Source: a bacterium (lineage in GTDB: Bacteria; UBA10199; 2-02-FULL-50-16; JAJFLM01). From it: a stretch of 64,000 bases of DNA. Shown here piece by piece: positions 8,081 to 63,834 of the stretch. Under the pieces are notes generated by a model. The model was not told the DNA's origin. It searched no databases and saw only the letters and a program-made list of their open reading frames with translations. The stretch covers positions 192,001 through 256,000 of the forward strand of contig CBDCFN010000016.1 in NCBI GenBank assembly GCA_965216315.1, read 5' to 3'. Each line of letters begins with the position of its first letter. Within the stretch, counting starts at the first letter, position 1. The position numbers and the translations under genes are program-made.

Positions 8081-9482
8081 CGAAATCAAGCGAGTTTATA
8101 CGGCTCAACAGGCCAATCGTTGGCAGCTCGCCCAGAGCCGTGCCAGCGAGCGCATCAAAAAACTCAAACGCATTCGCGAGGCCATTTTTGCTCGGCGTGA
8201 GGAAATACAACAGGCGATCTACGATGACTTTCAAAAGAATCCGGGGGAAACGGATCTGACGGAAATCTATCCGACGATTGCGGAGCTCAATCACACGATC
8301 AGTCATTTGCGCCGGTGGATGCGGCCCAAGCGGGTCGGGACACCTTTAACTTTGTTCGGCACGACGAGTGAAGTGCATTATGAGGCCAAAGGTTTGGTGC
8401 TGGTGCTCTCGCCCTGGAATTATCCGTTTCAACTGCTCATGGTCCCGATGATCACGGCTTTGGCTGCGGGGAATGCCGTTATTCTGAAGCCGTCGAGCAA
8501 GGTTCCGCATACCTCGGCGTTTCTGAAGCAATTTATCAGCGATCTTTTTCCCGAGAACGAAGTCGCCTTGTTTGAGGGGCCGGCATCAGTCGCGGACGCC
8601 TTGCTCGAACTGAGGTTCGATCACATCTTTTTTACCGGAAGTCCGCCGATTGGGAAAAAGATCATGGCAAAAGCAGCCACTCATTTGACGCCGGTGACGC
8701 TCGAATTGGGCGGCAAGTCGCCGGTCATTATCGACGAGACCGCTGATATTAAAAAGGCGGCCGAGCGGGTGATGTGGGGCAAGTTCATTAATGCCGGTCA
8801 AACCTGTGTCGCTCCCGATTATCTGTTAATCCACGAGAGTCATTTGGAATCGTTTGTGGAGGCGTCCCAGCAGGTCATTGCGGAACGTTACGGTGTGTCG
8901 GCGGGAGAACAGGAGTCGAGCGGTGACTACTGCCGCATGGTGAGCCAAGGGCATCTCGAAGGGCTCAAACGCGTGTTGGCTGCGGCCGTTGAAGCCGGGG
9001 CCAAGCTGGAGTTCGGGGGGCAGACCGACGACGAGGCGCGCTATCTCGCACCGACGCTGCTCTCCAACGTGAAAGATGACTCACCGATCATGCAGGAAGA
9101 AATCTTCGGGCCGATCTTGCCGATTATTACCTTCCGTTCGTTGGCTGAGGCCTTCGATATCATTCATAAACGGGAGAAACCGCTGGCCCTCTACATCTTT
9201 TCGCACAAACGGGCCCACATTGAAAAAATACTCAAAAACACGACGGCCGGGGGGACGTGCATCAACAGTCTCATCATCCATCTCGCCAATAACGATCTGC
9301 CCTTTGGTGGGGTGGGCCACAGTGGGATGGGGAATTACCATGGCTTTTATGGGTTCCGTGCCTTGTCGCACGAACGAGCCGTCTTGCGTCAAGGGGCGAT
9401 CGATACGCTGAAGATGTTTTATCCGCCTTATACGAAGCGGGTGAAGCAGATGATCCAGATGGCGATTAAGTATCTAGGATGA
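8061..9482 (+). CDS. Aldehyde dehydrogenase (family 3, fatty/coniferyl aldehyde type)
   Basis: PWNYP, FTGS, LELGGKSP, NAGQTCVAPDY, EEIFGP, PFGGVGHSGMG. Confidence 0.93.
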   Translation: MTQATTDEIKRVYTAQQANRWQLAQSRASERIKKLKRIREAIFARREEIQQAIYDDFQKNPGETDLTEIYPTIAELNHTISHLRRWMRPKRVGTPLTLFGTTSEVHYEAKGLVLVLSPWNYPFQLLMVPMITALAAGNAVILKPSSKVPHTSAFLKQFISDLFPENEVALFEGPASVADALLELRFDHIFFTGSPPIGKKIMAKAATHLTPVTLELGGKSPVIIDETADIKKAAERVMWGKFINAGQTCVAPDYLLIHESHLESFVEASQQVIAERYGVSAGEQESSGDYCRMVSQGHLEGLKRVLAAAVEAGAKLEFGGQTDDEARYLAPTLLSNVKDDSPIMQEEIFGPILPIITFRSLAEAFDIIHKREKPLALYIFSHKRAHIEKILKNTTAGGTCINSLIIHLANNDLPFGGVGHSGMGNYHGFYGFRALSHERAVLRQGAIDTLKMFYPPYTKRVKQMIQMAIKYLG

Positions 9483-12400
9483 GTTGTTCGAAGTCGTGCG
9501 GGACTCCGGGAAATGATTCGGTCAGATAGCTGTTACCCGTGAATCGTTCCTGAGTACGATATTTCTCCAGGGCCTGAATGAGTTTAGTCGAGTTTTTGTA
9601 TCGACTAAAAATGCGATGAGAGGGAACGGGTTGTTCGGAAGCTTGCGACTGAACGGCTGCATCGATGGGTTCAGTAAAGGCGCGTAGCGAATTTATCTGA
9701 CGTAATTGGCCTTGTGACAGGATCCACCGGGCCACGAGCAGGTGAAGTTCTGGGGCCGTCAGCTCGTCACTTGGCTTCGTCATAATCACACCGATTAAAT
9801 CTTCTCGATAGGGTCCCAGCTCATTGTGGGAGCCGCTGCTTAGAATTTTCATGATGATGGGCAGAACGGGTGAGGATATTTGTCCGAGCAGCTGCAGGCG
9901 TCGTACGAGTTTGCGATAAGATGAAGCGGTGGGTAATTCGCTCTTGTCTCGCAACTGATAGCCGCGACCGTGGTTGGGAATGATGATCTTTTTTCGAAGG
10001 GTCACAGCACTAATCACATGTTGCTCGGCACGTGGCCCCGCTAGAAAGGCTGCGGCCGTATCCGCCGCTTCTTTGGCGACTAAGTACGATTCATCCGGTG
10101 TTGCAAAGACCTTGAGCTCCATCACCCACTGTTGCCACTCGCTTTGGTATTGTTTGTCCGAAGCGCGAAACCACTCCCCGATAACGCGTTCGGTCCAAGT
10201 CGGTATATTGCTGTCAGACTTGAAATCGGTTAATGGATCGCCCTCGAGTTCGCTGGAGACGGTTTGCCGGACTTCTTTGCCGAGCGTGTTGAACACGGTG
10301 GGATAAGCATAGATATAGAGAGCTCCGAGTCTTTCCGCTTGGGTCAGTTCTTGACCCCGCAGGATGTGCTGCAGACTTTTTGAGAAACGACGTATTTGCT
10401 TGTCACGACTGAACGCATGTCGCAGGCGGTTTCGAACAGTCTCCGGGGCGACCTTGGCGAATAGATTTTTCAGTAAGAGGGTCCGGAGCGTCGGATGAGC
10501 CAATAGTCTTTCCAGGTACGAGACACGTGCGTGCATGAGTTGGATGAAGTTATCGGGATCATGGGACGCGTGCCAGCGTGATTCAAAGTCATCATGAAGT
10601 TCGCCAGGTATTGAAAGCGTGTCGAGCAAGTGGGTGAGCTTGTAAGTCGTATAGAGCGCGGGATTGCGGATATTTCGTTCGTAGCGTTCTAATGATTGAA
10701 TACCGGAGAGGGGCATAACGACATGACAGTCGCTACGCTGGATGGATTGTTTGTTTCCATCAGCATCGATGACGGAGACGGTACTCCCGAGAGTTTTTTT
10801 AAAGAAGGATGGTTTGACATAACCCCAGTGTAATTGGCCGTCTTGCATGTATTCGCAGTAATAACCGCGTTGACGATATCTCTTGGCCAGGGCGAGCACG
10901 CGCAACTGACGTTCATAAACTTCATGATCGGGGGCCAGTAAGGCGAACTCCGGAAAGAGGTGGACTGCGGTATGCACGTCGGTGGGTACTTGGGCCAGAA
11001 TGGCGAGAATTTCCGGATCGGTATCCGTGCGAGCCTGACCCCGTTGGGTTACGACCATTGGGGTTTCCGGTAAAGGGTGTTCCGGTGTGAGCGGAAGCTC
11101 CGACTCAAGTTCGGCCAGGTCAGCGATGAGTTTCGGTATTTGAGTGCGTTCTCGTTCGGAGAGTTCCGTGACTTTCGCTTGGATGTCTCGATAGGAAGTA
11201 ATAGCCTGTTGAAGGCGTGGATCGAGTGACTCGGTCGAAGTCGCCTCGCTACCGAGATAAGGTGCGAGCTCGGGTCGTTTCGTGATTTGAGTATTCTGGC
11301 GTTGCAGATTTTCTCTCAAACTACTTAATTGTTTTTTTAGGCGGTGACGTAAGTCGTGCAGCTGTTGAAAAAGGGCGGCATATTCTTGAAGTGTTATCGG
11401 GGTATTTTTCTCGAGCAGTTGTATAATGGCATCCGCTGTCTTCTGTGTTGTTTCCAGGTAGGGTGTCAGGACGGAGATCGCATCTTCGACTTCATCTGCG
11501 TTGTCAGCGACCGATTCCGATTTTTGCTGGCTGGCACGCACTCGCTCCAGGGCCTCAGTATAGACGACGAGCTTGAATTCGATCTCGTGATTGAGATCGA
11601 TCAAGTGGGGACCTAATGCCGTCACAGTGTCGACGTCGGCACTATCGAGTGAATCCAGTACCGAGTAGACGGCCGGTTCAAGTTTTTCGTCGTGACTTGC
11701 GACAAGGGTCTCGGCTTTTGTCTTCATCTCGATGAGACGTTGCAGGCTCGTCATCAGTTCATCGCCGTTCAGGGATGCGGCCGCCGGGAATGTGCCGAGT
11801 TCATTGAACAGTGCATCGGCTGTTTGTCCCATTTCCTGCGCCGTTTGCATGAGTGATTGGATGGTATGCGAGGCGGTGGCCGTTGGCTTCGGGGCTGGGG
11901 GCGGAATCGAAGTGTCACGGGGTGCTTCGGGCGGTGGCGTGGATTCACGAGGTGGCGTCGTGGTTAAATATCCGGTCGCGATCATCGCGATGCGCACCAA
12001 GTGCATGACGGTATTGGCGGCGAGGGTTTCTTTGCGCGCGCGTTGGAAGGCGTCGATTTCGGTATTAATGGCCTCAGCCAGCTCGGGATGAGACGCCGTA
12101 TAGGCGTGAACATTGGCAATGATCTCGTCTTGATGGGCCATGCGGAGGCGCCTGCGGGCGTGATCGATGAAAGTTTCGACTTGATAGCATCGCTTCATCG
12201 AGAGGCGCGCACGCTTGGGGATGATGAGTGCCAGAAAGATGCGCATGTCCTGTGTCCAAGGCGCTGTGCTACCCGATGCCTCGGACGCATTGCTGACTGG
12301 CATTGAATTAGTGATGATCGCTGCGATCCGAACCAGGTGCGTCAGCGATTCTTTAGAGAGGCTGCCGTCCCGGTTGCGATCAAATTGGGCCAATTCCGCC

Positions 12401-15400
12401 ATGATTTCGTCCTGGCGCGGATGTGGATTCGATTCGAGATGACTTATAATGCGACGTCGAATCTCCGGAAGATGTTCAAACCAGATATGTTTGCGGCCGC
12501 GGCTGAGAAATGATTTCAGGCTCCGGATACGCCGGACTTTTACGCCGTTGATAACTTGATCGAGGAAAGCGGCGATGGTTTGATTCCACGGGACCTTCTC
12601 GGTCCTTTTGTCGGCAGCGGGTTCGCTTTCCAGCTTCGGGACGTCCGTGGGCTGAGGAGCTTCCTCAGGAAGGGGCGCAAAACGTTCTGCGATCTCCATG
12701 ACGGTCCAGTTCAATTCTTCAATGGTGGCGCGGATTCTTTCCGCGGAGACGTTGGGAGGTGTCAATTTCTCCAAAACTCTTAGGACAGTACGTGTATCCG
12801 GATGGTCGGGATCAAGAAAACCGATTGTATAGATTGCATGATCACGGGCGGCCTCCAGGGCCGGAATGAGGTGGGCCTGGTCCAGTTCCTGCAGACGCTT
12901 TGCACCTTTATCGGTACTCTCAACAATGACCCGATGAGTTGCCGGGTTCCAGTCCGTCGCGCCGATGACTTGGATAGGTAAGGCGTTGTCCGCGGGGAGG
13001 AGGTCATTAGTGCTCGGTTGGTGAAGCATGGATCCGTCTTCCCGATACCGCGTCACCGTTTCGATAAAACGGTCTTTCTCTTTGTTAACGGTTGTAGCTC
13101 GGTAGATTGAAAAGGTACGGCCGTGCCAGACGATCAGGCGTCCGCGGGGATGATGTTTGAAAAAGAAGTAGCGGGCTCGCTCCGTCATTCCTTTGGCGGT
13201 GACGAGCATCGTGAAAGTCGTGCGCTCGGTGCTCGCGACGGCACCGGCGGCTTTAAGAATCATCCTGATAAATTTAGGATGTCCCAGATAACGGTTTCCG
13301 CGCACGCCGATATCGATAGTTCGTCTTGGGTCATTCCAGACCTGGACACTGGCGCCACTCGGCATGATGGCTTTTTCATGAAATTCCCCTTCCTCGGTCG
13401 AGACAGCGGGTCGCATTTGGACAAATGGAGTTCCTGTGTCTTGATCGTAGTCGAAACTTACGTGGCGTCCGAACTTGCGGCCCAATTGCAGGGGTTGAGG
13501 AAGAATGCGGTCTAATACAATCTCTGTCGGTTTGACCGCGGTGGCCATCAATAAGGTTGCAATCTGTCGAAACGTCTCATTGTCGCTCATTAAGGTGAGG
13601 AGTTGCTCTTTAGCGCGGGTACTTAGACGTTTAAGGCGGAGCAGGGCGGCGTAACGCTCAAGCCACTCGAGTCCTCTGCGGATGCGGCGGTTCTCTTGCG
13701 ACATATTTTGGAGGATCGCGTAGACGCTCAGCTCATCCGTATCATCCAGCATGTCGAGGATGACCTGCTCGTGCAGGAGTTGCAGCGACCATGATGAGGT
13801 GAGATCGCTGATTTTCCTCGGGAGTGTAGGCGGCGCTGGTTTATCTTGCTGCGTTTCCTCGACCGTTGGTTCAGTCGACTTCGGTGTCGCTGTTGTCGCG
13901 CTGACGACAGCGGTTTCTTTGCTCTCGACGGCGGCGACGAGAGTCGTGCCGGAGGCGATAAACATATCGGTATCCGCAAAGGGATTGCCATTATCGCCCG
14001 CTGCATCGGGAGAAACGACGGCGGGTTCGGTGTAGACCGCCTCCGCGGCGCGGGCGGCTGTGTCTGCAGCTGAATTTGCGGTTTCGTCGTGAACCACCGC
14101 GTCCGCAGCTGTCTGGTTCGCCGGCCTCTCACGGCTATCATTTTCGGGAAGGTCGGCTTGCGCTTGTTCGGAAGACTGAGGTGTTACGGTCTCCTGCTTC
14201 TCCGGTGCGGGTCCACCAGCGACGGGGATGCTCGGTCGTTTCTTGTAAATTGCAGTATCGCCTTCTAGGAGTGAAAGGTGGATGTGATTCGCCAGATCGC
14301 GGTGGTCGGTCAGGAAACTCAGTAGTGTCTCAAAGAGTCCTCGGTATTGACCAAGCAATTTTTGGTCATTTTTATATTTGGAATCTTTGCTGGCCTCGCG
14401 CCAGGCACTTTCAAAAGTGGCAATGCCGCTCGTTTGGAGTTGATTACAGTAGGCCCGATAGAGGCGCCACAGTCGATCAACGAAGAACATGAAATAGCGA
14501 GGGTGTCCACCGCCGACGGTCGGTCGGTGGATGGCGGCGACCTTAATGAAGATCATGCCGAATTCCGTGAAGCGCTCCGGGTCGATATCTCTGAAGAGTT
14601 TTTCGCCGAGATCCTCCGGGTCAATGTCAATCATGGGAGCTTCTGCCGCGGGCAAGGCCTCAATCAATTCGTTGTACAGAGCTTCTTGAAAGTCGCTATC
14701 ACGGGCTCCGATAAAATAGGCCAACAAACGCCTCACCATGACGGGGCTCAAGTGGAGCTGGGGATTGGTGTGTGCAAACTGGCGACTGGCCCGTTCCAGC
14801 GGATCAAATGTGTCTTGCTCGACGAGATCAAGATAGGTGCCGACCAGATCGCTCAACCCTTCTTCTCCCAGTAGGGTGGAATAATAATTATCACTCTTAC
14901 TGCATTCATCGGCCCACTCGCGGAGCAGGTCGCCGCGGTGTGTGCTTTCAGTAATTTCCTCGTAAGCTTGCGCCATGTTATCCAGCCCTAAGGGGGTCGT
15001 GGCATCTTGACTGCGGAAGAAGGCGGCTTCACCGGAAACGCCGAGGGTCTGCCGATAATGAAGCGTCATTTGGAAGAGCAGTGACAAGAGGTCGCGGGCG
15101 CGTTCTGTCGTGGGAGCGGTGTTTCCCAAGACGTGGGTCACATGATCTAGGCGCTGAGCGAGCGGACCATCATCGTCTTTGTGGCCCCAGCTGAGGCGCT
15201 CTTCATGTAAAAAGATCATGGCATGGGCAATCCATTCCGCCTGCGACATGGTTTCTAAAGGCTCTAGTTGGGGTGCTTCCTCTGTTTGCTGTCCGTCATC
15301 CGCCTGGAGACCAAGGACGGTTGCTGTATCGCTGTGAATTGTGGTGTCTCTATCTGGCGCTCCAGCCAAGCGGGCTTCAATGGCTGCCAGTTCCGCGTGT

Positions 15401-16665
15401 TGTTTCGCAAAGTCGATGGGGTGATGGCGTTCTAGACTGCGTTGCAGCCGGCGCGCGCGAAGTTTGACGGCATGACGAATGGCTTGTTTTTCCTCATGGT
15501 CGGCAGTGAGCCGCCAGATTTGAATAATATGACTGACGAGTGTGCGTAGGGGGTCATCGGCTTGATCTTGAGACGCATCCCAGAGGAAAACCAGATCGGA
15601 GCCCATATCATTGGCCATGTCACGCGGCCAATCTTCGGGGAGTCCATGGAGTGGTCGGCCGATTGCGACGGATGCCGGTCCGAGGATGCGCCGGATAATC
15701 CCGCTATTAAGGGTCGCGAGGTTATCAAGTCGCGTTAGGCCTTGGGTGATGTTGCGCAGAATGCGCGATGAGTCCCCGTTGGGAAGCTCACTCGCATAGA
15801 GATATAAAGAGCGGGCCCAGCGGACAAAGTCGTAGGGCCACGCGATGCCAGCACTCTGCATCTTGTGATAAATCTTTTGAATGCGACCTTCGTAGTGCGC
15901 ATGGGGTTCATCGCTGGCGGAATGATAATTGAAAGGGACTTGTTCAATGCTGGCTGGAACGGGTTCACGTATTTGGGTTGAAGGCGGCGCTAATGTCGTG
16001 GCGGTTTCTGCCGCTGGAGCTGCTGGGAGTGTAGGTACGGGTTCGTAAATTCCACTGTCGGCACGGAGCACATGCGAGGGGGGCGTGCTAAAGGTCACAT
16101 GCAGGCCGAGAGAGAGCCGCTGGATGGTTTCATCTTGGATCTGTGCAGAGACCTCTTCGACCATGCCGGCGATATTGCGATTGGCCTTGCTGTCGACATT
16201 GTTGAGGAAAATACTGAGTCCACCCATGACGACGCGGATGAAGGCCTTATCTTCATCGTTGGCACTCATGGCGTAGAGGCGGCTGCCTGCAATCGTGGAG
16301 AGTTGTGCGAGAATATCCACCAGGTAAGTGACATGCTGGTCACGCGTTGTCATGAACTCATAGCTGGCGGCGCGCCACACGCGATCCGGTACTTGGGCAA
16401 CGATGCGGGCGAGTTCGGCTTTGGCTGTTTCTAAGCGGCTATTGTCGCCATTATCTTGAAGTGCCGCATCTAAATGCGAAAGTGCCTGACCTAGGTCGCT
16501 CCAACTCTCGCCTGCTGTCTCTTGCCTCTGCAGTTGGGAATGAATCGCAGTGAGGTTTTCGAACAACTCGGAATGTTGCGGTGTTGTCAGGATGAATCCG
16601 GCTGCCCCTTGCGAGGTCATCGCCGCGGCCCCATTAAATAGGAATTGAGCGCCGGCCATGCTCAT
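9466..16665 (-). CDS. Giant 2399-aa hypothetical multidomain protein
   Basis: Uninterrupted 7.2-kb ORF; ATGA overlap with the upstream gene; first ~430 aa paralogous to the adjacent 679-aa protein; Pro/Thr-rich linkers and internal repeats. Confidence 0.85.
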   Translation of the reverse strand: MSMAGAQFLFNGAAAMTSQGAAGFILTTPQHSELFENLTAIHSQLQRQETAGESWSDLGQALSHLDAALQDNGDNSRLETAKAELARIVAQVPDRVWRAASYEFMTTRDQHVTYLVDILAQLSTIAGSRLYAMSANDEDKAFIRVVMGGLSIFLNNVDSKANRNIAGMVEEVSAQIQDETIQRLSLGLHVTFSTPPSHVLRADSGIYEPVPTLPAAPAAETATTLAPPSTQIREPVPASIEQVPFNYHSASDEPHAHYEGRIQKIYHKMQSAGIAWPYDFVRWARSLYLYASELPNGDSSRILRNITQGLTRLDNLATLNSGIIRRILGPASVAIGRPLHGLPEDWPRDMANDMGSDLVFLWDASQDQADDPLRTLVSHIIQIWRLTADHEEKQAIRHAVKLRARRLQRSLERHHPIDFAKQHAELAAIEARLAGAPDRDTTIHSDTATVLGLQADDGQQTEEAPQLEPLETMSQAEWIAHAMIFLHEERLSWGHKDDDGPLAQRLDHVTHVLGNTAPTTERARDLLSLLFQMTLHYRQTLGVSGEAAFFRSQDATTPLGLDNMAQAYEEITESTHRGDLLREWADECSKSDNYYSTLLGEEGLSDLVGTYLDLVEQDTFDPLERASRQFAHTNPQLHLSPVMVRRLLAYFIGARDSDFQEALYNELIEALPAAEAPMIDIDPEDLGEKLFRDIDPERFTEFGMIFIKVAAIHRPTVGGGHPRYFMFFVDRLWRLYRAYCNQLQTSGIATFESAWREASKDSKYKNDQKLLGQYRGLFETLLSFLTDHRDLANHIHLSLLEGDTAIYKKRPSIPVAGGPAPEKQETVTPQSSEQAQADLPENDSRERPANQTAADAVVHDETANSAADTAARAAEAVYTEPAVVSPDAAGDNGNPFADTDMFIASGTTLVAAVESKETAVVSATTATPKSTEPTVEETQQDKPAPPTLPRKISDLTSSWSLQLLHEQVILDMLDDTDELSVYAILQNMSQENRRIRRGLEWLERYAALLRLKRLSTRAKEQLLTLMSDNETFRQIATLLMATAVKPTEIVLDRILPQPLQLGRKFGRHVSFDYDQDTGTPFVQMRPAVSTEEGEFHEKAIMPSGASVQVWNDPRRTIDIGVRGNRYLGHPKFIRMILKAAGAVASTERTTFTMLVTAKGMTERARYFFFKHHPRGRLIVWHGRTFSIYRATTVNKEKDRFIETVTRYREDGSMLHQPSTNDLLPADNALPIQVIGATDWNPATHRVIVESTDKGAKRLQELDQAHLIPALEAARDHAIYTIGFLDPDHPDTRTVLRVLEKLTPPNVSAERIRATIEELNWTVMEIAERFAPLPEEAPQPTDVPKLESEPAADKRTEKVPWNQTIAAFLDQVINGVKVRRIRSLKSFLSRGRKHIWFEHLPEIRRRIISHLESNPHPRQDEIMAELAQFDRNRDGSLSKESLTHLVRIAAIITNSMPVSNASEASGSTAPWTQDMRIFLALIIPKRARLSMKRCYQVETFIDHARRRLRMAHQDEIIANVHAYTASHPELAEAINTEIDAFQRARKETLAANTVMHLVRIAMIATGYLTTTPPRESTPPPEAPRDTSIPPPAPKPTATASHTIQSLMQTAQEMGQTADALFNELGTFPAAASLNGDELMTSLQRLIEMKTKAETLVASHDEKLEPAVYSVLDSLDSADVDTVTALGPHLIDLNHEIEFKLVVYTEALERVRASQQKSESVADNADEVEDAISVLTPYLETTQKTADAIIQLLEKNTPITLQEYAALFQQLHDLRHRLKKQLSSLRENLQRQNTQITKRPELAPYLGSEATSTESLDPRLQQAITSYRDIQAKVTELSERERTQIPKLIADLAELESELPLTPEHPLPETPMVVTQRGQARTDTDPEILAILAQVPTDVHTAVHLFPEFALLAPDHEVYERQLRVLALAKRYRQRGYYCEYMQDGQLHWGYVKPSFFKKTLGSTVSVIDADGNKQSIQRSDCHVVMPLSGIQSLERYERNIRNPALYTTYKLTHLLDTLSIPGELHDDFESRWHASHDPDNFIQLMHARVSYLERLLAHPTLRTLLLKNLFAKVAPETVRNRLRHAFSRDKQIRRFSKSLQHILRGQELTQAERLGALYIYAYPTVFNTLGKEVRQTVSSELEGDPLTDFKSDSNIPTWTERVIGEWFRASDKQYQSEWQQWVMELKVFATPDESYLVAKEAADTAAAFLAGPRAEQHVISAVTLRKKIIIPNHGRGYQLRDKSELPTASSYRKLVRRLQLLGQISSPVLPIIMKILSSGSHNELGPYREDLIGVIMTKPSDELTAPELHLLVARWILSQGQLRQINSLRAFTEPIDAAVQSQASEQPVPSHRIFSRYKNSTKLIQALEKYRTQERFTGNSYLTESFPGVPHDFEQLILDT

Positions 16666-18701
16666 CGTCCCGCCTCCAGAATTTGTTGTCTCGATTCCTT
16701 GGGAAAGAGCGCGATGGCGGCCGCGAGATTTTGTTCAATCTTGTGGATGATGCGGGCTCGCCCGCCTTCGGCAAAAGCGTCCAGGCTGCCCGCGAGTCGG
16801 GCGAGGATGCGGAGAATGTCGGCCTCGTTGGGTTGACCTGCAGAGAGCTTCCAAATGCGGGCAAGGATGTTCGCGTGACGACGGAGTTCACTATTGTCAC
16901 GATCCGGATGACCGTCCCAAGCGCGGATCAAGGCTTTGCCTAAGTGATTGGGCCAGTCTACGGGCCAATTTGCGGGAATGCCCGTCATGGGGTGGTCAAC
17001 GGCGACACTGGTTGGACCTAAGTGCTTGCGAATTGCTGTCATGTTGATCGCCTGGATCTTATTTGAATTGGCGAGGGCCTTGAGGCCGTTGCTGATATTC
17101 GTTGTAAGTCCTTTGCGGGTTCGGCCTCTCCCCATAGCTTGATAGACGAGTTGGGTGGGGATCTCCTCGACTTCCTTGGTCCAGCGATAGAGCGAGCGGG
17201 TCCAGCGAACGAAGTCATAGGCCCACGGGTAGTGTGCTGCCTCGATGCGAGCGAGAACCGCCTGAACCAACTCTTCTTGGGACTTGGGCAAACGACGCTC
17301 GCTCATTTCGTGATACTCAAAGATCGACTCACCATCGAGTGCCGGGTGGAGCCAGAGAGGAAAAAGAACTCGAATTTCTGCCAGGTTCGTCTCGATAGAT
17401 TTTATCGGGAGGTCGCGGTCACTCTCATAGGCGCGGTTGAAACGTTGCATGACATTGCGGAGTTTTTTGTGAATGAATGCTTCGTTGTCGAGGCCGCTGG
17501 AATAGGTCCAGATCCGAGTGAGTGCCGTGACAACGGAGCGCAAGCGCAGTAATTCAACAGAGGGATGGCCGTCCCAGTTCATGACAAGGATTGCGGTTAA
17601 GTTGTTGGGCATGTCGAGCGGCCAGTTCTGTGGGAGATTTTCAACGGGTTTGCCCAGTGCCATTGCGACCGGCGCCAGCAGACGCCGGATCTGTCCCACG
17701 CCGATGGTGTCGGTTTCAGATAATTGGCGGAGGCCGTAGGCAATATTGTTACGCAGTCCCCGGGTGGTGCGACCCCGTGCCAATCGGTCGTGGACTAATC
17801 GCGACGGTATTTCCGCGATCTCGCCGGCCCAGAGATAAAGAGAGCGGGTCCAAGTGACGAAGTCATAGGGCCAGTCGATTACCTGGTCATGGATTTTCAA
17901 TGCGATGTCTTGAATTTGTTGCTCATAGAGCGCGTTCGTGAGCGCAACCGTACTTTCCGGATGATAGTCGTAGGGAAGCCGCGGGGGTCTGGGCTCAAAT
18001 GAAGGAGTGGAAACGACTTCTTCTCTCGAAAGGGTATCTGTTGCGGGCGCTTTCGCCTGGATTGGTGAACGCAGCGTGCTTGGCGGCTTGCTGGTCGTGC
18101 TTGTTTCGGGAAGAACCGGAGCGAGACGTGCGTTGGGTTGTACTGGAAAATGAGCACCCACTTGGTTTGCAAAGGTTTGGATGACACTATCCTGAATTTG
18201 GGCGGCCACCTCTTCGACCATGCCGGCGAGTTCTTTTTCTGATTTGTCGACTGCCCTGGAAACAAAGATGGTAATGCCGCCGAGTAAGGTCCTGATAAAC
18301 GCCTTGTCTTCGTCCGAGGCGGATAGGACGTATTGGCGGCTCCCCGTGATCGGACGGAGCACGACACGTATTTCCTCTAGATAAGCGATGCATTGCTCAC
18401 GGGGCGTCATGTGCGAAAAGGTACCATTGCGCCAGATGGGATCGGGGATAGCCGCTACGATGCGTGCGAGTTGCATTTGCGTTGCTTGGATGGAGCTCGG
18501 TTCCGTTTCGCAGACGGCGGTTTCAAGGCGGTCAATGGTCGGATAAAAATCAGTCAGTGAATGATCCGTGATGCCAGCCGACTGCAATTGGGACCGCACT
18601 TGTCCCAGCCCTTCGAGGAGTTGCCCTGGCTGGGACTGAGTCAGAATAAAACCGGCGGCGGCCTGCGAATAAAGCGCTGCCTGTCCACTGAAGAAGGTCA
18701 T
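16662..18701 (-). CDS. Hypothetical protein (679 aa) with a tandemly duplicated W(P/A)YDFV-RSLY domain
   Basis: Start MTFFSGQ at 18701 overlaps the upstream stop (ATGA) and aligns with the giant protein N-terminus; two internal copies of a ~170-aa domain. Confidence 0.85.
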   Translation of the reverse strand: MTFFSGQAALYSQAAAGFILTQSQPGQLLEGLGQVRSQLQSAGITDHSLTDFYPTIDRLETAVCETEPSSIQATQMQLARIVAAIPDPIWRNGTFSHMTPREQCIAYLEEIRVVLRPITGSRQYVLSASDEDKAFIRTLLGGITIFVSRAVDKSEKELAGMVEEVAAQIQDSVIQTFANQVGAHFPVQPNARLAPVLPETSTTSKPPSTLRSPIQAKAPATDTLSREEVVSTPSFEPRPPRLPYDYHPESTVALTNALYEQQIQDIALKIHDQVIDWPYDFVTWTRSLYLWAGEIAEIPSRLVHDRLARGRTTRGLRNNIAYGLRQLSETDTIGVGQIRRLLAPVAMALGKPVENLPQNWPLDMPNNLTAILVMNWDGHPSVELLRLRSVVTALTRIWTYSSGLDNEAFIHKKLRNVMQRFNRAYESDRDLPIKSIETNLAEIRVLFPLWLHPALDGESIFEYHEMSERRLPKSQEELVQAVLARIEAAHYPWAYDFVRWTRSLYRWTKEVEEIPTQLVYQAMGRGRTRKGLTTNISNGLKALANSNKIQAINMTAIRKHLGPTSVAVDHPMTGIPANWPVDWPNHLGKALIRAWDGHPDRDNSELRRHANILARIWKLSAGQPNEADILRILARLAGSLDAFAEGGRARIIHKIEQNLAAAIALFPKESRQQILEAGR

Positions 18702-19984
18702 GCGGCCCTCCGGATCTTCTTGCTGCGCAGTTCCTCCGGCGTGAAGAAATCGCCGAACATCGTCATGAGTCCGGCTTGAAAGCGGGAACTCAAATCCGCG
18801 GGTTGTTTGATCGTGGCAAAACGAACCAGGCTGGCCGTTGGGACAAAGAGCCCCCGGGCCGGGAGGGCGCCGTAATGATAGTGACAGGTCCAGTAACGAA
18901 AGAACCACTGGTCTTTGAGCGGATTCGAACTTGAGTCGTCTGGTTCGGCCCAGTTCAGATCCCGCAGCAGACTATTGCCAATATAACGTTGCTGGGCTCC
19001 GAGCCGGCGGGGATTGTGGCCACTCATGTCGACGAGCCATTCGTTAAAAACTTCACGACGGGTTCGCCCCGGATGCCAGTTGACGGATTCCAGACTCACT
19101 TTGCGGCGGATCACATTAATCATGGCTTTGTCATCCAAGACGCGTTCTTTGCCTCTTTCGCTGAGGAGTTGAATGACGGCATGGCGGCGGAGGGCATAAC
19201 GAAAGGAATCATCCCAATGCGTGTGTTCATTGGGCAGGGAGAGTGACCAACCATAGGCCTCAAAGGTAGCGAAGATGACGAGGTGCTGCATCAAGCGACC
19301 CCAGAGAGGCTCAATCGCGGTGGCCCGGTCGATGAGACGACGGGCCTCAGCGGTTGGAAAACGACCGAGGTAACTATGAATAAAGCGACCGCTTCGTAGT
19401 TGACGGCGGGTATGGCTATTGATCCGATAAAATTGTTCGGTATCGATTTCACGCTGACCATGGCCCATGACGCCGGCGACATAATGGGCAAAATAGCTCA
19501 GCAATTTCCCGGCGCTGTCGATCGATTCACTCGGTGGATTGGGTGCCGGGTGCGCCTCGGTTCCGTATTTTTTCCATTCGATCAGGGGAAGCTGTCCGAT
19601 GGGGGTGCGATGACCACGGGTGGTGATCGATTGCGGGCCGGTCTCACTGGGTCCGGTTAATTCCTGTAAGGCTTGTCCGGCTCTTTGTAGTTGCAAGGCT
19701 TCATCCAGCGAGGCTCCGTTTTTGAGATCTTCGTGGATGCGCTCTATTTCCCCGTAGAGTTTGGAGTTGTGCCAGTCGGTACGAAGGTAGCCCCCGCTCT
19801 GGAGCGCCACTGAAACGCGCGTCAGTCGTCCTCCTAAATCGCTGCGTCCCAGCTCATTGAGTTGGGGGGCCAAGTCATCCAGAACAGTGGCGATGCCCTG
19901 AGGTTGTCCCGTGAGACTGAGTTGGGTCAGGTGTCCTAAGAGACTTGAGAGATGACCTGCCGGAGTGATGATACCGTAAGACAT
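18698..19984 (-). CDS. Hypothetical protein (428 aa)
   Basis: Long ORF starting MSYGII 4 nt after the helicase stop; its stop overlaps the next start. Confidence 0.75.
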   Translation of the reverse strand: MSYGIITPAGHLSSLLGHLTQLSLTGQPQGIATVLDDLAPQLNELGRSDLGGRLTRVSVALQSGGYLRTDWHNSKLYGEIERIHEDLKNGASLDEALQLQRAGQALQELTGPSETGPQSITTRGHRTPIGQLPLIEWKKYGTEAHPAPNPPSESIDSAGKLLSYFAHYVAGVMGHGQREIDTEQFYRINSHTRRQLRSGRFIHSYLGRFPTAEARRLIDRATAIEPLWGRLMQHLVIFATFEAYGWSLSLPNEHTHWDDSFRYALRRHAVIQLLSERGKERVLDDKAMINVIRRKVSLESVNWHPGRTRREVFNEWLVDMSGHNPRRLGAQQRYIGNSLLRDLNWAEPDDSSSNPLKDQWFFRYWTCHYHYGALPARGLFVPTASLVRFATIKQPADLSSRFQAGLMTMFGDFFTPEELRSKKIRRAA

Positions 19985-19988
19985 GGCG

Positions 19989-22565: not shown

Positions 22566-22592
22566 TCATCGGCTTATTTGGGACGACGTTGC
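22566..22592 (-). promoter_or_regulatory. sigma28(FliA)-like promoter of the helicase operon
   Basis: Minus strand GCAAC-N14-GCCGATGA. Confidence 0.65.
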
Positions 22593-24830: not shown

Positions 24831-24857
24831 ACAACGGCCCTCGCTTTCGGTCGATAA
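24831..24857 (+). promoter_or_regulatory. sigma28-like promoter of the 1157-aa gene
   Basis: ACAAC-N14-GTCGATAA. Confidence 0.65.
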
Positions 24858-28425: not shown

Positions 28426-28452
28426 ACAACAATTTTCGAGAAGTTGCGATAA
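28426..28452 (+). promoter_or_regulatory. sigma28-like promoter of the Cys-repeat lipoprotein
   Basis: ACAAC-N14-TGCGATAA. Confidence 0.6.
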
Positions 28453-55754: not shown

Positions 55755-55798
55755 GAACAGCCTTGACGCATTGTGCTATGGTTCGCTACGACGGGGTC

Positions 55799-57613: not shown

Positions 57614-57756
57614 GCATTCAGGGCAGTGTGAGTGTTCACGTTTTCGTCGTTCGGGGAAGCAAATGGGCAGCAAAAGGACGACGGAAGCAGCCGCTCTTGG
57701 GTTTGGGGGAGAGGAAGAGGGCAGACAAAGGAGCTTACTAGCTGAAGGGGGCGATA

Positions 57757-59418: not shown

Positions 59419-59432
59419 TTACAATATTTGAA

Positions 59433-59551
59433 GTCGTTCGAAAAGTTCCCAGCTGTGAGGCAGGGCGACGAAGTGTGACACAGGCGTACTGATACGTACG
59501 CCGAGGAGCCACTAAGGAGCCCAACGATGCAGATGGTGGTTTTCGAACGAC
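59433..59551. mobile_element. MITE-like non-autonomous element (119 bp)
   Basis: Perfect 12-bp terminal inverted repeats GTCGTTCGAAAA / TTTTCGAACGAC; internal hairpin GGCGTAC..GTACGCC; no ORF. Confidence 0.6.
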
Positions 59552-59561
59552 GGAGTTTGCC

Positions 59562-59793
59562 CGACACTGGCCTAACCCTCCCTAAGTGGGCCAGTAACCC
59601 CAAGCCAGGTTCCCCCCCGATTCCCCGTTGGGGGGGAACCGTTTGGCGGAACGAAAGCACAGCTTCCGTTCCACCATAGTCAGGGGGAAGAAAAACTCTC
59701 TCCCCCCTAACGACCCCCCATCGTGGGTTAAATTGGGGTAAAGTTCTTTAACACGCCGAAGAGGGGCGGACCCGAGGAAGGCCGCCCCTTTTT
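59562..59793 (+). ncRNA. Candidate structured small RNA (tandem hairpins, C-rich loops)
   Basis: Four or more consecutive GC-rich stems (59566-59595, 59608-59640, 59644-59676, about 59678-59713) ending in a terminator. Confidence 0.4.
59759..59793 (+). terminator. Intrinsic terminator
   Basis: AAGAGGGGCGG, loop, CCGCCCCTTTTT. Confidence 0.8.
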
Positions 59794-59823
59794 ACTATCA
59801 CAAATAATTTTCAGGATTGTTGA

Positions 59824-62800
59824 CTACGCTTTTTCGCGTTTGCGTTGCTCGCGCCAGTTGCGGAAGCGCCGGAAGATGTTGAGGAATCTTCCCAGGCGGG
59901 TGTACCAAGGAAGTGCCATCGGTGCTTGTGAGTCGGATAGAGCTAGGGCATCGACGAAGTATTCGACGCGGTTGCGGCCGTTACGCTTGGCGCGATACAG
60001 GACCGTATCGGCGTTGCTGATGGCAACGCTAAGCGATGTTTTCTTTTCCTTTACTTCGGAGAGCTCGTCGCCGCTACCATTGCCGCCGTTTTCGATGATG
60101 CGGAAGGGAGCGACGCCAAGGCTGACCGTGATATCTAGGGAGACAGGTTTTCCGCCGGCATTCGAAGTGATCGTATTCTGCATGATACGCTCGCGGATGC
60201 GCTCGGCCATTTTCTTGGCCCCTTCTGCGCCACAGTGGCGAGCGACGAGACAAAACTCTTCACCGCCGTAGCGGGACACGATATCGGTCGGGCGCGCTTC
60301 ATCACGGATCATGTCGGTGACCTGGCGGAGGACGTCGTCGCCGACGGGATGGCCGTGGTTGTTGTTGACACGGCTGAAGTGATCAATGTCGATCATGATA
60401 ACATAGTGTTCTTTAACTCTCCCATCCGGATAACGATCTTCGCCACGGGGGTTCAACATGCTCCGTTCCAGGACACCATTTTGACTCATCAGCTTACCAT
60501 AGGTTTCGAGCCCGGTTTTATCGTCGTGCTCGGAGTCATGGAGGTGGATCGAGGCAGCCGTTGCATGGATGTCGGCTAGATCCAGGGCTTCCGCCAATAA
60601 AGCACGGACGTGGGTCGGAACAGTGGGATCAAAGAGTATCGGTGACTGGCGCAGTTCTTTTAGCCGCCTGTGTTGGGCCTTTTTATGCTCGTCGGCTCTA
60701 ATTCGCTCTTCTTCGCTTTGCTCCGGCTCATTGCTAATCTTTTCAAGCTCCCCACTGCGCGCCAATTGATTGCTGAAGAGACGGGTAAAGCCTTCATAGT
60801 CAGGACGCAACGAGAAACGTAAGGGAAGCGATTCATGTGTTCGGCTATAACTATCGAAAAACTCGCGCCCAATGCGCGTGCGATCTTCTAAGAGAAATTC
60901 CAGCAGTTCCCAGGCGTGTTTGACTTCATTCAGTTCAGCCTGTTTGTCGGGAGAGAGGCTGATATTTCGTTCTTGGAGAAAGGCATCAAAATCTTCGAAG
61001 ACGCGACGCCGTACTTCGGGGGATTCAAAATCAAATCCAATGTAAGGCATGAATGTCATTCCCTGGTCGCGGGCTTTCATGTCGAGAGCGTTGACGCCGA
61101 GTTGATATAGGAAGGCAATGATGCGTTGCATGGCGCGCCGGCTCAGCCCCGCATCCGTGCTTTGTTTTTTACGCGCGGGGTCCATCTCAGTTCGGATGCT
61201 TTCCCCCCAGGCGACCCAGTGTTCGCCGGGTTGAGGTAATTTGGGGATCCAACCTTCGAGGCTGGTTGCCAACGTGCCGTCTTCGGCTGAAATTTCAGCA
61301 CTGATATGGACACCGTTGGTATTGAAGCGTTTGAGTTTTACGCGGCTGGTGACATGGCCGCGAATATCCGTTCCGAATGCGTCACGGATGTCGCGAACCG
61401 AGACACGGCGGTGAAACAATTCTTCGAGGAGTTGCTGGGTTTCGTCTGAGTCGAACGGAAGATCGAGTTCATCCCCGATATCGATATGTTCAATCCGAGG
61501 CGGTTCCGCTGTCTTGACAACGCGCCTTGTTGCTTCATCCCAGTTTTCTTTGTAGACAAACTGCCGAATCCACCGGGCAACTTGAGTCGAGCTGGACCGG
61601 CCGATTACAAAATACATCGCCTGTTTTATGTCAATTTTAGTCGGATCAGCCGTGGGTGTGCCGTTGAGATAAGCCGGGAACGAAGCGAGGCGCACATCAA
61701 ATCCCTTGTTGGCGAGTTGCCAGGCTCTTCGCTCGGCTTCTTCAAGCGTGTCGGTAAAGACATGGACTTCGCGGGCATGAGCTGGACGATCCGTCGGGCG
61801 AAACCAATGATTGAATATGGCTTGTGCTTCCTCAGGGTCATTTTCCCAGAGTTGCGGTATGACCTTGCCAATTTCGTGCAATAAACTCTCGACGTTACGA
61901 CCGCGACCGACCATTCGTGTAGGGGCACGCAATACAATGGGCGAATTACCGTTTTCAGTTGTGATCGGTCTGGTAATAAGGCGCAAACGATCCGTTGCGG
62001 TTTGCATCTGAGTGTTATCAAGTTGGGCACCCCGCGTTTTGTCAATATCCTTGAGGGCGCTGAGTATACGCACCAGGAGGTCCGGTGGAACGACGATGGG
62101 ACTAATCTGATTCGTCCTCCGTTGCTGACGTATATGGGCGTACTCTAGATTTTGAATTTCTTCGCTGAGATCCGCGTAAGGATAATAGCTATTAAAGGCC
62201 TGTTTGGTTTGTTCAAGTAAACGTCTTCGCGGTGCGTCGCCCAGATTGGTCCAATCACTGAAGCTTAATGCGAGTTGCCGGACCCACGGATATTTGGAGG
62301 CATCAATCGCGGGCAAGGCTATTTGGATATCGCGAATCAGTGTCGCGTTTTCGGCTAGAGTTGGCGTCATGGCAAGGGCGCGCCGGTATTGGTCAATTTC
62401 CGGTTGAAATTCTTCAAAGCCTTCGATCGGTCTGAGGAGCTGTTCGGCCATATCGAGGGTTAGGCGGCGGACGGCGACGGTCGTATGCGCCCAATTGCCT
62501 AGAAAACGAATGATTTCGATGGAATGAAATGCCCGGTCGAATTCTTTTGCAGTTGCATTTGGTCCCAGTTGCGCGCGCGTTCGAGCCTTCATCAATGTTT
62601 GGACGGCCGTATTGACTAGCGGCGGTACTTGGCGCGGACCTGAATAATCAGCCGCGGCGATATGCCGATCAATACGTTGTGCCAGCGGACTCAAGGGTTG
62701 GTGTCCGCGCAAAGTCGCATTGGTATCATCGAGCATCTGCGTGCGCGTCGACTGCGGCAATTGATTGATGGTGCCCAGCGCCGTGCTGAATGTCGCGAGA

Positions 62801-62868
62801 TTATTAATCAGTCCGACATTGGGTACACTGGTCGCAATCGAATAGGGTAGGGGCATGAGTTGTACCAT
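59824..62868 (-). CDS. 1014-aa GGDEF protein with long novel N-terminal region and possible GNAT-like domain
   Basis: MIDIDHF..VNNNHGHPVGD, RPTD I-site, RYGGEEF, AD..LYRAKRNGRNR; GLSRRAMQ...LGV..LDMKA...G..F....GFDF is GNAT-like. Confidence 0.85.
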   Translation of the reverse strand: MVQLMPLPYSIATSVPNVGLINNLATFSTALGTINQLPQSTRTQMLDDTNATLRGHQPLSPLAQRIDRHIAAADYSGPRQVPPLVNTAVQTLMKARTRAQLGPNATAKEFDRAFHSIEIIRFLGNWAHTTVAVRRLTLDMAEQLLRPIEGFEEFQPEIDQYRRALAMTPTLAENATLIRDIQIALPAIDASKYPWVRQLALSFSDWTNLGDAPRRRLLEQTKQAFNSYYPYADLSEEIQNLEYAHIRQQRRTNQISPIVVPPDLLVRILSALKDIDKTRGAQLDNTQMQTATDRLRLITRPITTENGNSPIVLRAPTRMVGRGRNVESLLHEIGKVIPQLWENDPEEAQAIFNHWFRPTDRPAHAREVHVFTDTLEEAERRAWQLANKGFDVRLASFPAYLNGTPTADPTKIDIKQAMYFVIGRSSSTQVARWIRQFVYKENWDEATRRVVKTAEPPRIEHIDIGDELDLPFDSDETQQLLEELFHRRVSVRDIRDAFGTDIRGHVTSRVKLKRFNTNGVHISAEISAEDGTLATSLEGWIPKLPQPGEHWVAWGESIRTEMDPARKKQSTDAGLSRRAMQRIIAFLYQLGVNALDMKARDQGMTFMPYIGFDFESPEVRRRVFEDFDAFLQERNISLSPDKQAELNEVKHAWELLEFLLEDRTRIGREFFDSYSRTHESLPLRFSLRPDYEGFTRLFSNQLARSGELEKISNEPEQSEEERIRADEHKKAQHRRLKELRQSPILFDPTVPTHVRALLAEALDLADIHATAASIHLHDSEHDDKTGLETYGKLMSQNGVLERSMLNPRGEDRYPDGRVKEHYVIMIDIDHFSRVNNNHGHPVGDDVLRQVTDMIRDEARPTDIVSRYGGEEFCLVARHCGAEGAKKMAERIRERIMQNTITSNAGGKPVSLDITVSLGVAPFRIIENGGNGSGDELSEVKEKKTSLSVAISNADTVLYRAKRNGRNRVEYFVDALALSDSQAPMALPWYTRLGRFLNIFRRFRNWREQRKREKA

Positions 62869-62874
62869 GGCCGC

Positions 62875-62901
62875 TTTTCGGCGTAAATTTGCGAAAGTTG
62901 T
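62875..62901 (-). promoter_or_regulatory. sigma28-like promoter 6 nt from the ATG (probably leaderless mRNA)
   Basis: Minus strand ACAAC-N14-GCCGAAAA-gcggcc-ATG. Confidence 0.65.
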
Positions 62902-63027
62902 GCGAATAGGGAGCTATATTTATCCAGATTCGCAGGGATTCGAAAAAAATGGCTCATTCAGCCTAAAAAAAGGGCAAATGTTCGAAAGTTTTTGAAAAAT
63001 AAGGTCTTTTTAGGGACTTTTCATGAG

Positions 63028-63054
63028 ACAACTTTTCTCGCCGGCGTCCGAAAC
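63028..63054 (+). promoter_or_regulatory. sigma28-like promoter 6 nt from the ATG (probably leaderless mRNA)
   Basis: ACAAC-N14-TCCGAAAC-ggacct-ATG. Confidence 0.6.
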
Positions 63055-63060
63055 GGACCT

Positions 63061-63834
63061 ATGAGCGTCTCTCTCCACGGCGTTTTCGTTGCCAATGCCC
63101 TGGTTCAGACCGGGGCCTATACGATGGCGCAGCAGGTGCAAAGCGCGGAGCCCAGCCTCGTGTCCCTCCTCCTGGGGAGAGACTTGCCGTCTCCTCATCA
63201 GACAATTTTTTTCACTTCCAATGCAGGCAATGGTTCCAGTGTACGCCAAAGCCATCACCCCTATCGTTCGCGTATTACGTCGGAATTTTATAGACTTGGG
63301 ATCGCCCGTGATGTGCTTGAATATGTTTTAGCGGGTGTTCAACAAACGGATAAAGACCACTTTATTTTAAGACATCGATTTGCTGATCGGCCAATGGTCT
63401 ATGAGGTGCGTGTTGGTGATGGCGACACGATGCCGTCGACAGCATTGGAAGGGGGGATCTATAATCCTGAAGAGGAACGCTTTTTTGGCGTTAAATTTCT
63501 GGCCCATGTTCATTCCCTGCGTCAGGGCATCATTCCATCGGGAAGAGACCTTCACTTGGCATCGATGTGGGCCTACTTTCATCCCGATGAGTGGATCAGT
63601 CACCTCGTGCTGGGAATCACTGCGGGGGAGCCGACCTTTGTCAAATTGCTCAGTCGCTATGACAGTGAAACAGATCGGACAGCGATGTCATTTGAGTTTG
63701 CGGTGAATTACCCAATGCAGGAGCGCCAGTCACTGCACTTACAGGTTGCACGTCGGTTGAACACGTTTATTGAAGAAAGGGATTCAACTGGCGCTCGCGA
63801 CCAATACTCGTCTCCGGCCCATGTCCGGGGATGA
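63061..63834 (+). CDS. Hypothetical protein with JAB/MPN-like metal-binding motif
   Basis: FLAHVHS...IPSGRDL (HxH-x8-S-xx-D); start MSVSLHG at 63061. Confidence 0.55.
   Translation: MSVSLHGVFVANALVQTGAYTMAQQVQSAEPSLVSLLLGRDLPSPHQTIFFTSNAGNGSSVRQSHHPYRSRITSEFYRLGIARDVLEYVLAGVQQTDKDHFILRHRFADRPMVYEVRVGDGDTMPSTALEGGIYNPEEERFFGVKFLAHVHSLRQGIIPSGRDLHLASMWAYFHPDEWISHLVLGITAGEPTFVKLLSRYDSETDRTAMSFEFAVNYPMQERQSLHLQVARRLNTFIEERDSTGARDQYSSPAHVRG

Follow-up and report, generated by a model that had tools for sequence, protein, structure and literature searches.

We analysed a 64,000-nucleotide stretch of DNA from an uncultured bacterium (G000:C16:192001-256000; hereafter the window) in which seven proteins begin with a long leader that is free of charged residues. 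The window's own genome, G000, amounts to 2.96 Mb in 16 contigs, with a completeness of 98.3% and a G+C content of ∼51%. An initial annotation, made from the window alone, had given the first charged residue (D, E, K, or R) of each of the seven proteins, and translation reproduced all of them. The seven genes are as follows.

9466..16665, minus strand: orphan giant protein of 2399 aa; first charge E33; start overlapping the upstream gene (ATGA)
16662..18701, minus strand: orphan protein of 679 aa, paralogous to the 2399-aa protein; first charge E30; start overlapping the upstream gene (ATGA)
18698..19984, minus strand: orphan all-alpha protein of 428 aa; first charge D36; start 5 nt past the helicase stop
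19989..22508, minus strand: superfamily 2 (SF2) helicase of 839 aa with a charge-free leader; first charge E27; Pfam ResIII, Helicase_C, and DEAD; first gene of its operon
24881..28354, plus strand: orphan protein of 1157 aa; first charge D38; ILASG motif in the leader
59824..62868, minus strand: GGDEF protein of 1014 aa; first charge R42; Pfam GGDEF
63061..63834, plus strand: orphan protein of 257 aa, called "JAB-like" in the initial annotation; first charge E30

The housekeeping proteins of the window are indeed charged at the N-terminus, with a first charge mostly at residues 2–8. As had been claimed, only two of the seven leader proteins are recognisable paralogues, the 2399-aa and 679-aa proteins being the sole pair. 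The three starts that the initial annotation had chosen itself are each supported. All five database homologs of the 428-aa protein (39–52% identity) begin within 0–3 residues of the Met at 19984. For the 257-aa protein, only 7 nt separate the end of a CAAC-N16-CGAAA promoter-like site from the ATG at 63061, and a start at the alternative TTG (62992) would fall upstream of the site. The 679-aa start (18701) has an upstream GGAGG and an ATGA overlap, and it opens an N-terminus (AAGFILT) with a paralogous counterpart in the 2399-aa protein.

Pfam finds no family in five of the seven, the helicase and the GGDEF protein being the exceptions. Of the cytoplasm-type cargo that had been read into the set, these two therefore stand; nothing GNAT-like was found in any scanned protein, and the JAB assignment is a weak lead only. 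The 257-aa protein has no match in Pfam or NCBIfam, and its Atlas leads to Toxin-JAB1 and Prok-JAB stay below 0.9 (0.88). The GGDEF protein has three leader-bearing paralogs elsewhere in G000. An AlphaFold model of the 428-aa orphan (mean pLDDT 77.9) is helical over residues 8–25 and had no match in the PDB by Foldseek at E ≤ 0.001.

The helicase operon (16662-22508) consists of four tightly coupled genes; at one junction the gap is 5 nt, and at the other two the start and stop overlap as ATGA. All four genes encode a leader of their own; thus, the tag is not confined to promoter-proximal genes.

A genome-wide class of charge-free leaders

We called the genes of G000 with a crude caller based on dicodon log-odds, start codon, and Shine-Dalgarno score, which yielded 2525 genes at a coding density of 91.5%. 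A protein was assigned to the leader class when it was non-membrane and its first D, E, K, or R stood at position 27 or later. The first charge lies that far in for 116 of the 2525 proteins, and 93 of these are non-membrane. The composition of the proteome predicts ∼2.3 by chance (0.764^26 × 2525). The enrichment over the genome background that the initial annotation had set as a test is thus observed. Two controls were used: 400 kb of G038, which represents another family within the class, and 80 foreign loci around SctV/FlhA genes. Our caller found one leader-type protein among 377 in G038. As a second, uniform procedure, we applied a naive first-ATG rule for open reading frames (ORFs) to all three sets. 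It gave 108 leader-type ORFs of 2409 in G000 (4.5%), 1 of 400 in G038, and 11 of 1706 in the foreign loci, so that the controls lie at 0.25–0.64%. None of the 80 foreign loci held two or more leader-type ORFs.

ATG accounts for 88 of the 93 starts, and in 67 cases no other start codon lies between the called start and the upstream stop. A further 21 proteins combine a first charge at residues 20–26 with the leader motif described below, which brings the total to 114. Because of these additions, and of false positives and caller misses, we put the size of the class at ∼90–115. The misses include two genes of the window: the 257-aa gene is absent from the calls because it overlaps the next gene, and the 428-aa gene was given a longer start. 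Charge-free leaders are a real, shared N-terminal targeting module, and they form a genome-wide class that extends far beyond the window.

The leaders have a composition and a layout of their own. Over residues 2–27, Ser (14.4%), Thr (9.5%), Ala (15.1%), and Leu (16.0%) all exceed their proteome values (6.1, 5.4, 8.9, and 9.7%, respectively), and D/E/K/R are close to zero versus 23.6% in the proteome. Positions 3–4 are mostly Leu, Phe, or Ala. A motif, LA[AS][SGTNAH], occurs in 44 of the 93 leaders, with its Leu mostly at residues 14–19; in 500 shuffles of the leaders, the count averaged 9.2 and never exceeded 17. A Pro/Ser/Thr-rich stretch follows the motif. The signal thus starts with Met, is hydrophobic at position 3 or 4, and alternates Leu with Ser/Thr/Ala; x-[LV]-L-A-[AS]-[SGT] often stands at about residues 14–20, and a Pro/Ser/Thr-rich linker comes next. 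An expectation-maximisation motif search on the leaders returned a diffuse profile only, and the strict L-A-[AS]-x motif is present in one of the seven window leaders (ILASG of the 1157-aa protein).

The leaders do not look like known export signals of the general pathways. The initial annotation had noted that they lack a Sec n-region, and this is borne out: there is no K or R before residue 27, and the median hydrophobic core (12-residue maximum) is 1.41, well below that of the genome's own signal peptides (2.54 for 90 lipobox proteins) but above the 0.58 of cytoplasmic-type N-termini, and thus of an intermediate strength. They also lack the Arg of a Tat signal, by definition of the class. 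No N-terminal signal family of Pfam (116 leader proteins scanned) or of NCBIfam (38 scanned) matches the leader, and we found no description of such a leader in the literature searched.

The leader sits on unrelated proteins. BLAST grouping of the 93 proteins, after removal of their first 45 residues, separated them into 76 families with unrelated mature parts. Leader-coding DNA is similar in two pairs only, and its third-codon-position composition is that of the mature parts, which shows that selection acts on the peptide. In a Pfam scan of 109 leader proteins, 72 had no family at E ≤ 0.001. The remaining Pfam-matched proteins are mostly complete nucleotide- or cofactor-using enzymes behind the tag. 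The cargo with Pfam matches comprises:

Metabolic and RNA enzymes: glutamate dehydrogenase (GDH), phosphofructokinase (PFK), aromatic amino acid lyase, RtcB, class-V aminotransferase, a pyridoxal phosphate (PLP) enzyme, cysteine dioxygenase
Signalling proteins: Ser/Thr kinases, histidine kinases with or without receivers, RelA/SpoT
Others: FGE-sulfatase domains, endo/exonuclease-phosphatase, PlsC-type acyltransferase, a 3854-aa giant resembling polyketide and fatty acid synthases

The complete domain begins after the tag, at residue 78 for GDH, 79 for PFK, 39 for HAL, 35 for RtcB, and 85 for Aminotran_5. For four of these enzymes (PFK, GDH, RtcB, and the aminotransferase), G000 also encodes a paralog without a leader (24–35% identity). 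The 3854-aa protein (G000:C15:370007-381571) has acyltransferase, MaoC dehydratase, and short-chain dehydrogenase domains and a charge-free leader of 42 residues.

How the tag was acquired can be followed for GDH, with orthologs that include those of G001, which like G002 belongs to the window's family (f1), and of G003, from another family of the same order. The leader-bearing GDH is 61–64% identical to ordinary GdhA proteins of many phyla (446–453 aa) and has ∼22 extra N-terminal residues. Its orthologs P0009 (67% identity) and that of G001 have different leaders of the same style (LLANS, ALLASS). The G003 ortholog (55% identity) is leaderless and starts MVEAKSDPK. Thus, the tag was added to an existing enzyme within f1.

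The mature parts are also distinctive. From residue 61 onward, leader proteins have a median Cys content of 0.32% versus 1.02% and a Lys content of 3.0% versus 5.6%, and they are richer in Arg. The Cys/Lys bias holds in GC-matched bins, where K/(K+R) is 0.27–0.37 versus 0.37–0.50. This bias separates the leader proteins from cytoplasmic proteins independently of the N-terminus. The median G+C content of leader genes is 53.8% versus 51.1%.

A FliA-like promoter and its regulon

The initial annotation had placed all seven genes under a sigma28-like promoter, CAAC-N14-CGA. Such a promoter is present at all four transcription units; its spacing is N16, the N14 being a miscount, and the helicase site reads CGATG. 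The window holds the following sites.

22567..22591, minus strand: promoter-like CAAC-N16-CGATG with a variant -10, 58 nt upstream of the helicase ATG
24832..24856, plus strand: CAAC-N16-CGATA promoter of the 1157-aa gene, 24 nt from its ATG
28427..28451, plus strand: promoter of the same type, 56 nt before the lipoprotein gene 28508-29698
62876..62900, minus strand: CAAC-N16-CGAAA promoter of the GGDEF gene, its end 7 nt from the ATG; leaderless-mRNA geometry
63029..63053, plus strand: CAAC-N16-CGAAA promoter of the 257-aa gene, its end 7 nt from the ATG at 63061; pointing away from the GGDEF promoter

With the site before the lipoprotein gene, the regulon extends beyond the leader class. The GGDEF and 257-aa genes have their leaderless-geometry promoters back to back (window 62876-63053).

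CAAC-N16-CGA[TA]A occurs 206 times in G000, versus 52–88 times for spacings of 12–15 and 17–20. In 120 cases (119 distinct genes), a gene on the same strand starts within 150 nt. The predicted association with the leader is strong: a site precedes 34 of the 93 leader genes versus 85 of the 2432 others (odds ratio 15.9, p = 2e-23). The site is not leader-specific, and also precedes lipoprotein genes, Sec-type genes, and several paralog arrays. One such array (G000:C16:2163562-2185583) has ∼10 paralogous genes, each with a near-identical CCGCAACT(T/C)T-N-CCGATAAC promoter; several of the proteins start MGCDLYGAS or MTCDLYGAS, and none has a leader.

CGA[TA]A ends 7–12 nt before the ATG in 19 of the 34 promoter-linked leader genes versus 18 of the 85 other promoter genes, and these sites are accompanied by no Shine-Dalgarno sequence. 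So close a -10 element implies leaderless or near-leaderless mRNAs, preferentially in the leader class, and it fixes the start codons independently.

The promoter is shared beyond G000. Its exact 27-nt form occurs in 17–22 copies each in G001, G002, and G003 (reversed control, 0), and the excess at spacing 16 is modest in G038; the promoter is thus at least order-wide. The ORFs downstream of it differ between families. In G001 and G002, the first charge lies at residue 27 or later in 5 of 16 distinct ORFs and at 23 or later in 8 of 16. In G003, none of nine reaches 27, the maximum being 16.

The closest known parallel is the FliA-dependent attack-phase regulon of Bdellovibrio bacteriovorus, for which the available description gives the consensus TTAAG-N16-CCGATA in 92 of 140 promoters (PMC3627812). 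The two are alike in their layout (-35, N16, C-CGATA), in having more than 100 sites, and in their mostly uncharacterised, surface, or secreted genes. The -10 element and the N16 spacing match the Bdellovibrio consensus. However, the -35 element is GCAAC rather than TTAAG or TAAA, no flagellar genes were found in G000, the sigma gene lies in a T3SS (type III secretion system) cluster, and many sites end 7–12 nt from the ATG. The Bdellovibrio secretion toolbox paper deals, in the part covered here, with Sec signals only (PMC12622784).

The single type III apparatus

The initial annotation had called for a search for export loci. G000 has one non-flagellar T3SS, and we found no flagellin or rod genes, no TssC (type VI secretion, T6SS), no VirB4 (type IV secretion, T4SS), and no phage-type or contractile sheath. 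A complete type II secretion system (T2SS) is present. The only FHIPEP gene lies 83 kb past the window end, in a cluster with the following content.

C16:339-360.5 kb: SctV, an FHA/YscD-like (SctD-like) protein, an LcrH/CdsG-like TPR protein, SctJ, a sigma-70-family factor, a FliG-like protein, SctL, SctN, SctO
C16:339-360.5 kb, further: an SctP/FliK-like protein, a FliM-like protein, FliN/SctQ, FliO, SctR, SctS, SctT

SctU lies alone at 805 kb, outside the cluster. The non-flagellar core (SctV, N, J, R, S, T, U, Q, L, and O) is thereby complete. SctV scores 806 bits with TIGR01399 (hrcV; cut-off 692) and 698 with the FlhA model (cut-off 772). SctN passes the cut-offs of both SctN and FliI_clade2, and SctJ, SctL, and SctR match T3SS models best. 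The part of the cluster at G000:C16:351908-358365 keeps FliG-, FliM-, and FliO-like genes and a FliA/WhiG-like sigma gene, in a genome in which no flagellin or rod gene was found. This gene content gives the cluster the look of a flagellum-like intermediate.

The cluster's sigma factor is the only clearly FliA/WhiG-like one of G000; its best match is TIGR02479 at 133 bits, below the cut-off of 189.6. A 162-aa ORF without a known family (G000:C16:351407-351895), which has a 4-nt overlap with the stop of the sigma gene, is a candidate anti-sigma factor. The apparatus genes themselves have no CAAC-N16 site. The first two sites lie directly after sctT, before a 717-aa leader protein and a 491-aa protein. 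The G001 ortholog of the 717-aa protein again follows this promoter and has a leader of the same style; it lies on the SctV contig, ∼19 kb beyond where the SctV match ends. We considered a promoter inside the T3SS cluster of G003 as an analogue and rejected it; it precedes a 125-aa ORF with a charged start.

Beyond the cluster, a 298-aa protein (G000:C16:370814-371710) lies between two TPR chaperone-like genes. Its C-terminal part has faint matches to the needle family PF09392 (E 0.047) and the inner-rod family PF17001 (E 0.1), and it could be a divergent needle or rod protein. The proteins downstream of the cluster have no transmembrane segment. The extended region ends with a sigma54-dependent activator that has an N-terminal FHA/YscD-like domain (G000:C16:372422-373819) and that possibly regulates the apparatus genes.

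The apparatus is widespread: FHIPEP was found in all 41 genomes of the class that were examined, G000 included. Outside the class, the nearest SctV proteins (53%) come from metagenome-assembled genomes labelled Archangium, in loci that share 13–15 co-linear cluster proteins, followed by those of Chlamydiae (46–49%). Unlike the G000 cluster, which has its own FliA/WhiG-like sigma factor, the two Archangium-labelled loci have none that we could find within 10 kb of SctV.

A related machine has been described in Myxococcus xanthus, where a needleless T3SS* (mxan_2434-2464) works with a Kil Tad-like pilus in prey lysis (PMC12075869, PMC12428579). Where these two reports turn to T3SS* effectors, they call them only "potential" and name none (PMC12075869, PMC12428579). 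As in T3SS*, G000 has a basal body, an export gate, and a sorting platform, and no recognised secretin, needle, or translocon. Unlike the Myxococcus system, it has no Kil/Tad cluster beside its weak second secretin match, and its genome is ∼3 Mb. That match was considered as a sign of a Tad/Kil partner and rejected, being an isolated 253-aa gene among housekeeping genes.

The arrangement also resembles flagellar class-3 logic, in that a FliA-like sigma is encoded with the apparatus, the apparatus genes lack the promoter, the putative substrates have it, and FliG-, FliM-, and FliO-like genes are present. Flagellar axial proteins have polar, weakly charged N-termini. Unlike a flagellar system, G000 has no flagellin, hook, or rod genes and no identified FlgM-like anti-sigma factor, and the cargo consists of enzymes rather than filament subunits.

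Destination of the leader proteins

The evidence firmly shows a modular, peptide-level N-terminal address on many unrelated proteins of one family of bacteria, tied to a FliA-like regulon. The best reading, unproven and in our judgement about evenly balanced between right and wrong, is that the charge-free leader directs its proteins to the single non-flagellar T3SS. The T3SS suggests itself because it is the sole injection-type system found; because the leader is Ser/Thr-rich, charge-poor, N-terminal, and convergent, like type III signals; because the cluster encodes the likely sigma factor; and because the first promoter-driven leader gene abuts sctT.

The leader shares several traits with injectisome effector signals. 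The leader is extremely N-terminal, Ser/Thr-rich, charge-depleted, and hydrophobic at position 3 or 4, like the signals described for EffectiveT3 (PMC2669295) and the Hop effectors of Pseudomonas syringae (PMC3338616), as far as these descriptions extend. The P. syringae rules, as given there (PMC3338616), ask for Ser above 10% in the first 50 residues, an aliphatic residue or Pro at position 3 or 4, and no acidic residue in the first 12. All three hold for 43% of the leader proteins versus 6% of the rest, one of them by definition of the class. As with injectisome effectors, the leader sits on unrelated cargo, in genes scattered as in Chlamydiae, and is convergent rather than homologous. The leaders differ from injectisome signals in being fully charge-free for 26–55 residues, in their Leu/Ala enrichment, and in the positional L-A-[AS]-[SGT] motif that about half of them have. 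At the level of the whole system, they differ in that the repertoire is found in one family while the apparatus is class-wide, and in that secretin, needle, and translocon are unrecognised. The literature searched contained no report of T3SS effectors in this lineage.

Family f1 has attached a modular targeting signal to ∼90–115 unrelated proteins. Under this reading, the signal would feed them, unfolded, into the single non-flagellar type III export apparatus. Many of the leader genes would be transcribed from CAAC-N16-CGATAA by the cluster-encoded FliA/WhiG-like sigma factor, an inferred pairing of sigma and promoter. The apparatus would thus be made first and the substrates later, in a sequence resembling the flagellar class-2/class-3 hierarchy. 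The cargo would then act in the cytoplasm of another cell, as its requirement for ATP, GTP, NAD(P), or PLP suggests. Lys depletion would fit an escape from ubiquitination, and GGDEF and histidine-kinase cargo would fit bacterial targets.

The initial annotation had gone as far as to call the seven proteins effectors, delivered into a host or prey cell by a type III-like or other route. Part of this proposal has gained ground: there is a genome-wide class on unrelated proteins, a link to the promoter, nucleotide-using cargo, and a T3SS. Other observations pull the opposite way, and several of them bear on the type III route directly. We recognised no secretin dedicated to the T3SS in G000, the sole strong secretin being the GspD of the T2SS operon, and neither the needle protein SctF nor the translocators SctE/B. 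The leader is seen only in f1, whereas the T3SS is class-wide and the promoter at least order-wide. The cluster also encodes probable early substrates, the SctP/FliK-like protein among them, and their N-termini are charged. The enrichment in Leu and Ala (16.0% and 15.1%) and the positional motif are both atypical: published type III signals, in the account available to us, are enriched in Ser/Thr(/Pro), depleted in acidic and basic residues, and depleted in Leu and Ala (PMC2669295). In the single model made, leader residues 8–25 of the 428-aa protein form a confident helix within an N-terminal helical domain and not a disordered tail. Histidine kinases, GGDEF proteins, and metabolic enzymes could equally serve the cell's own cytoplasm. 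Finally, the 93 include at least two false positives with Rossmann-type starts, namely GpsA and MurG.

Two further accounts of the leader must be weighed, each of which we hold to be improbable. The first keeps the idea of export or sorting and changes the route: the proteins might pass through an unrecognised, family-specific translocon, or the leader might be an atypical, uncharged signal peptide followed by T2SS or vesicles. This would agree with the restriction of the leader to one family beside a class-wide T3SS, and a complete T2SS is at hand. The layout recalls a weak h-region followed by a small-x-small stretch ∼15–20 residues from the Met, the Leu/Ala enrichment is signal-peptide-like, and no Pfam or NCBIfam model matches the leader. 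However, the basic n-region is absent and the hydrophobic core is low (1.41 versus 2.54). In the periplasm or the medium, cargo that needs ATP, GTP, NAD(P), or PLP would be idle. Nor was a candidate apparatus identified; T4SS, T6SS, and contractile sheaths were not found.

The second account, to which we give a similarly small chance, takes the leader for an internal tag. The proteins would stay in their own cytoplasm, and the tag would serve polar or membrane-proximal localisation or the phase-specific degradation of attack- or infective-phase proteins. The cargo is typical of own-cell signalling and metabolism (histidine kinases, GGDEF, RelA/SpoT, PFK, GDH, RtcB, helicase), the leader is modelled as a structured helix, and no complete injection device was recognised. 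The regulon also resembles a life-cycle-phase regulon such as that described, in the portion relevant here, for Bdellovibrio (PMC3627812). Three points speak against an internal tag. The leader enzymes are extra, divergent copies beside leaderless housekeeping paralogs. Their Cys/Lys-poor mature parts at equal GC suggest a different working environment. A single tag of 20–45 residues on 76 families exceeds what N-degrons are known to need.

That the leader is an artefact of wrong starts, or of a nucleotide constraint at the 5' end of leaderless mRNAs, is scarcely credible: three of the seven window starts had been chosen by the earlier reader and the -10 element often lies 7–12 nt from the ATG (19/34 versus 18/85 promoter genes), but most starts leave little choice (67/93 first after a stop; 88/93 ATG), homolog starts agree, promoter geometry fixes several ATGs, a positional motif would be lost in untranslated sequence, synonymous-site composition is unchanged, 12 leader genes are operon-internal (within 20 nt of an upstream gene), including the Shine-Dalgarno-preceded 679-aa and 2399-aa genes, genes of the same leaderless geometry also encode charged N-termini, and the same pipeline yields only 0.25–0.64% in controls.

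Returning to the type III route, its fullest form is one that we advance tentatively and consider less probable than its core. In this form, f1 would have evolved a stringent, motif-bearing address for a secretin-less, flagellum-like T3SS of the T3SS* type. The complete set of its substrates, ∼100 proteins poor in Lys and Cys, would be readable from the genome; whole metabolic enzymes and kinases would belong to it, as would a helicase and a diguanylate cyclase. Their expression would be tied to the apparatus through the cluster's FliA-like sigma factor, largely from leaderless mRNAs.

Canonical type III signals are too degenerate to be read from sequence; here, a sharply defined tag occurs on ∼100 proteins beside a related apparatus. 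If the tag does not feed the T3SS, it would be an undescribed targeting or turnover signal on 4% of the proteome. If it does, it would provide a testable recognition code and a cargo list, the first for this ancestral T3SS class, and whole metabolic enzymes would be among the proteins that these bacteria export.

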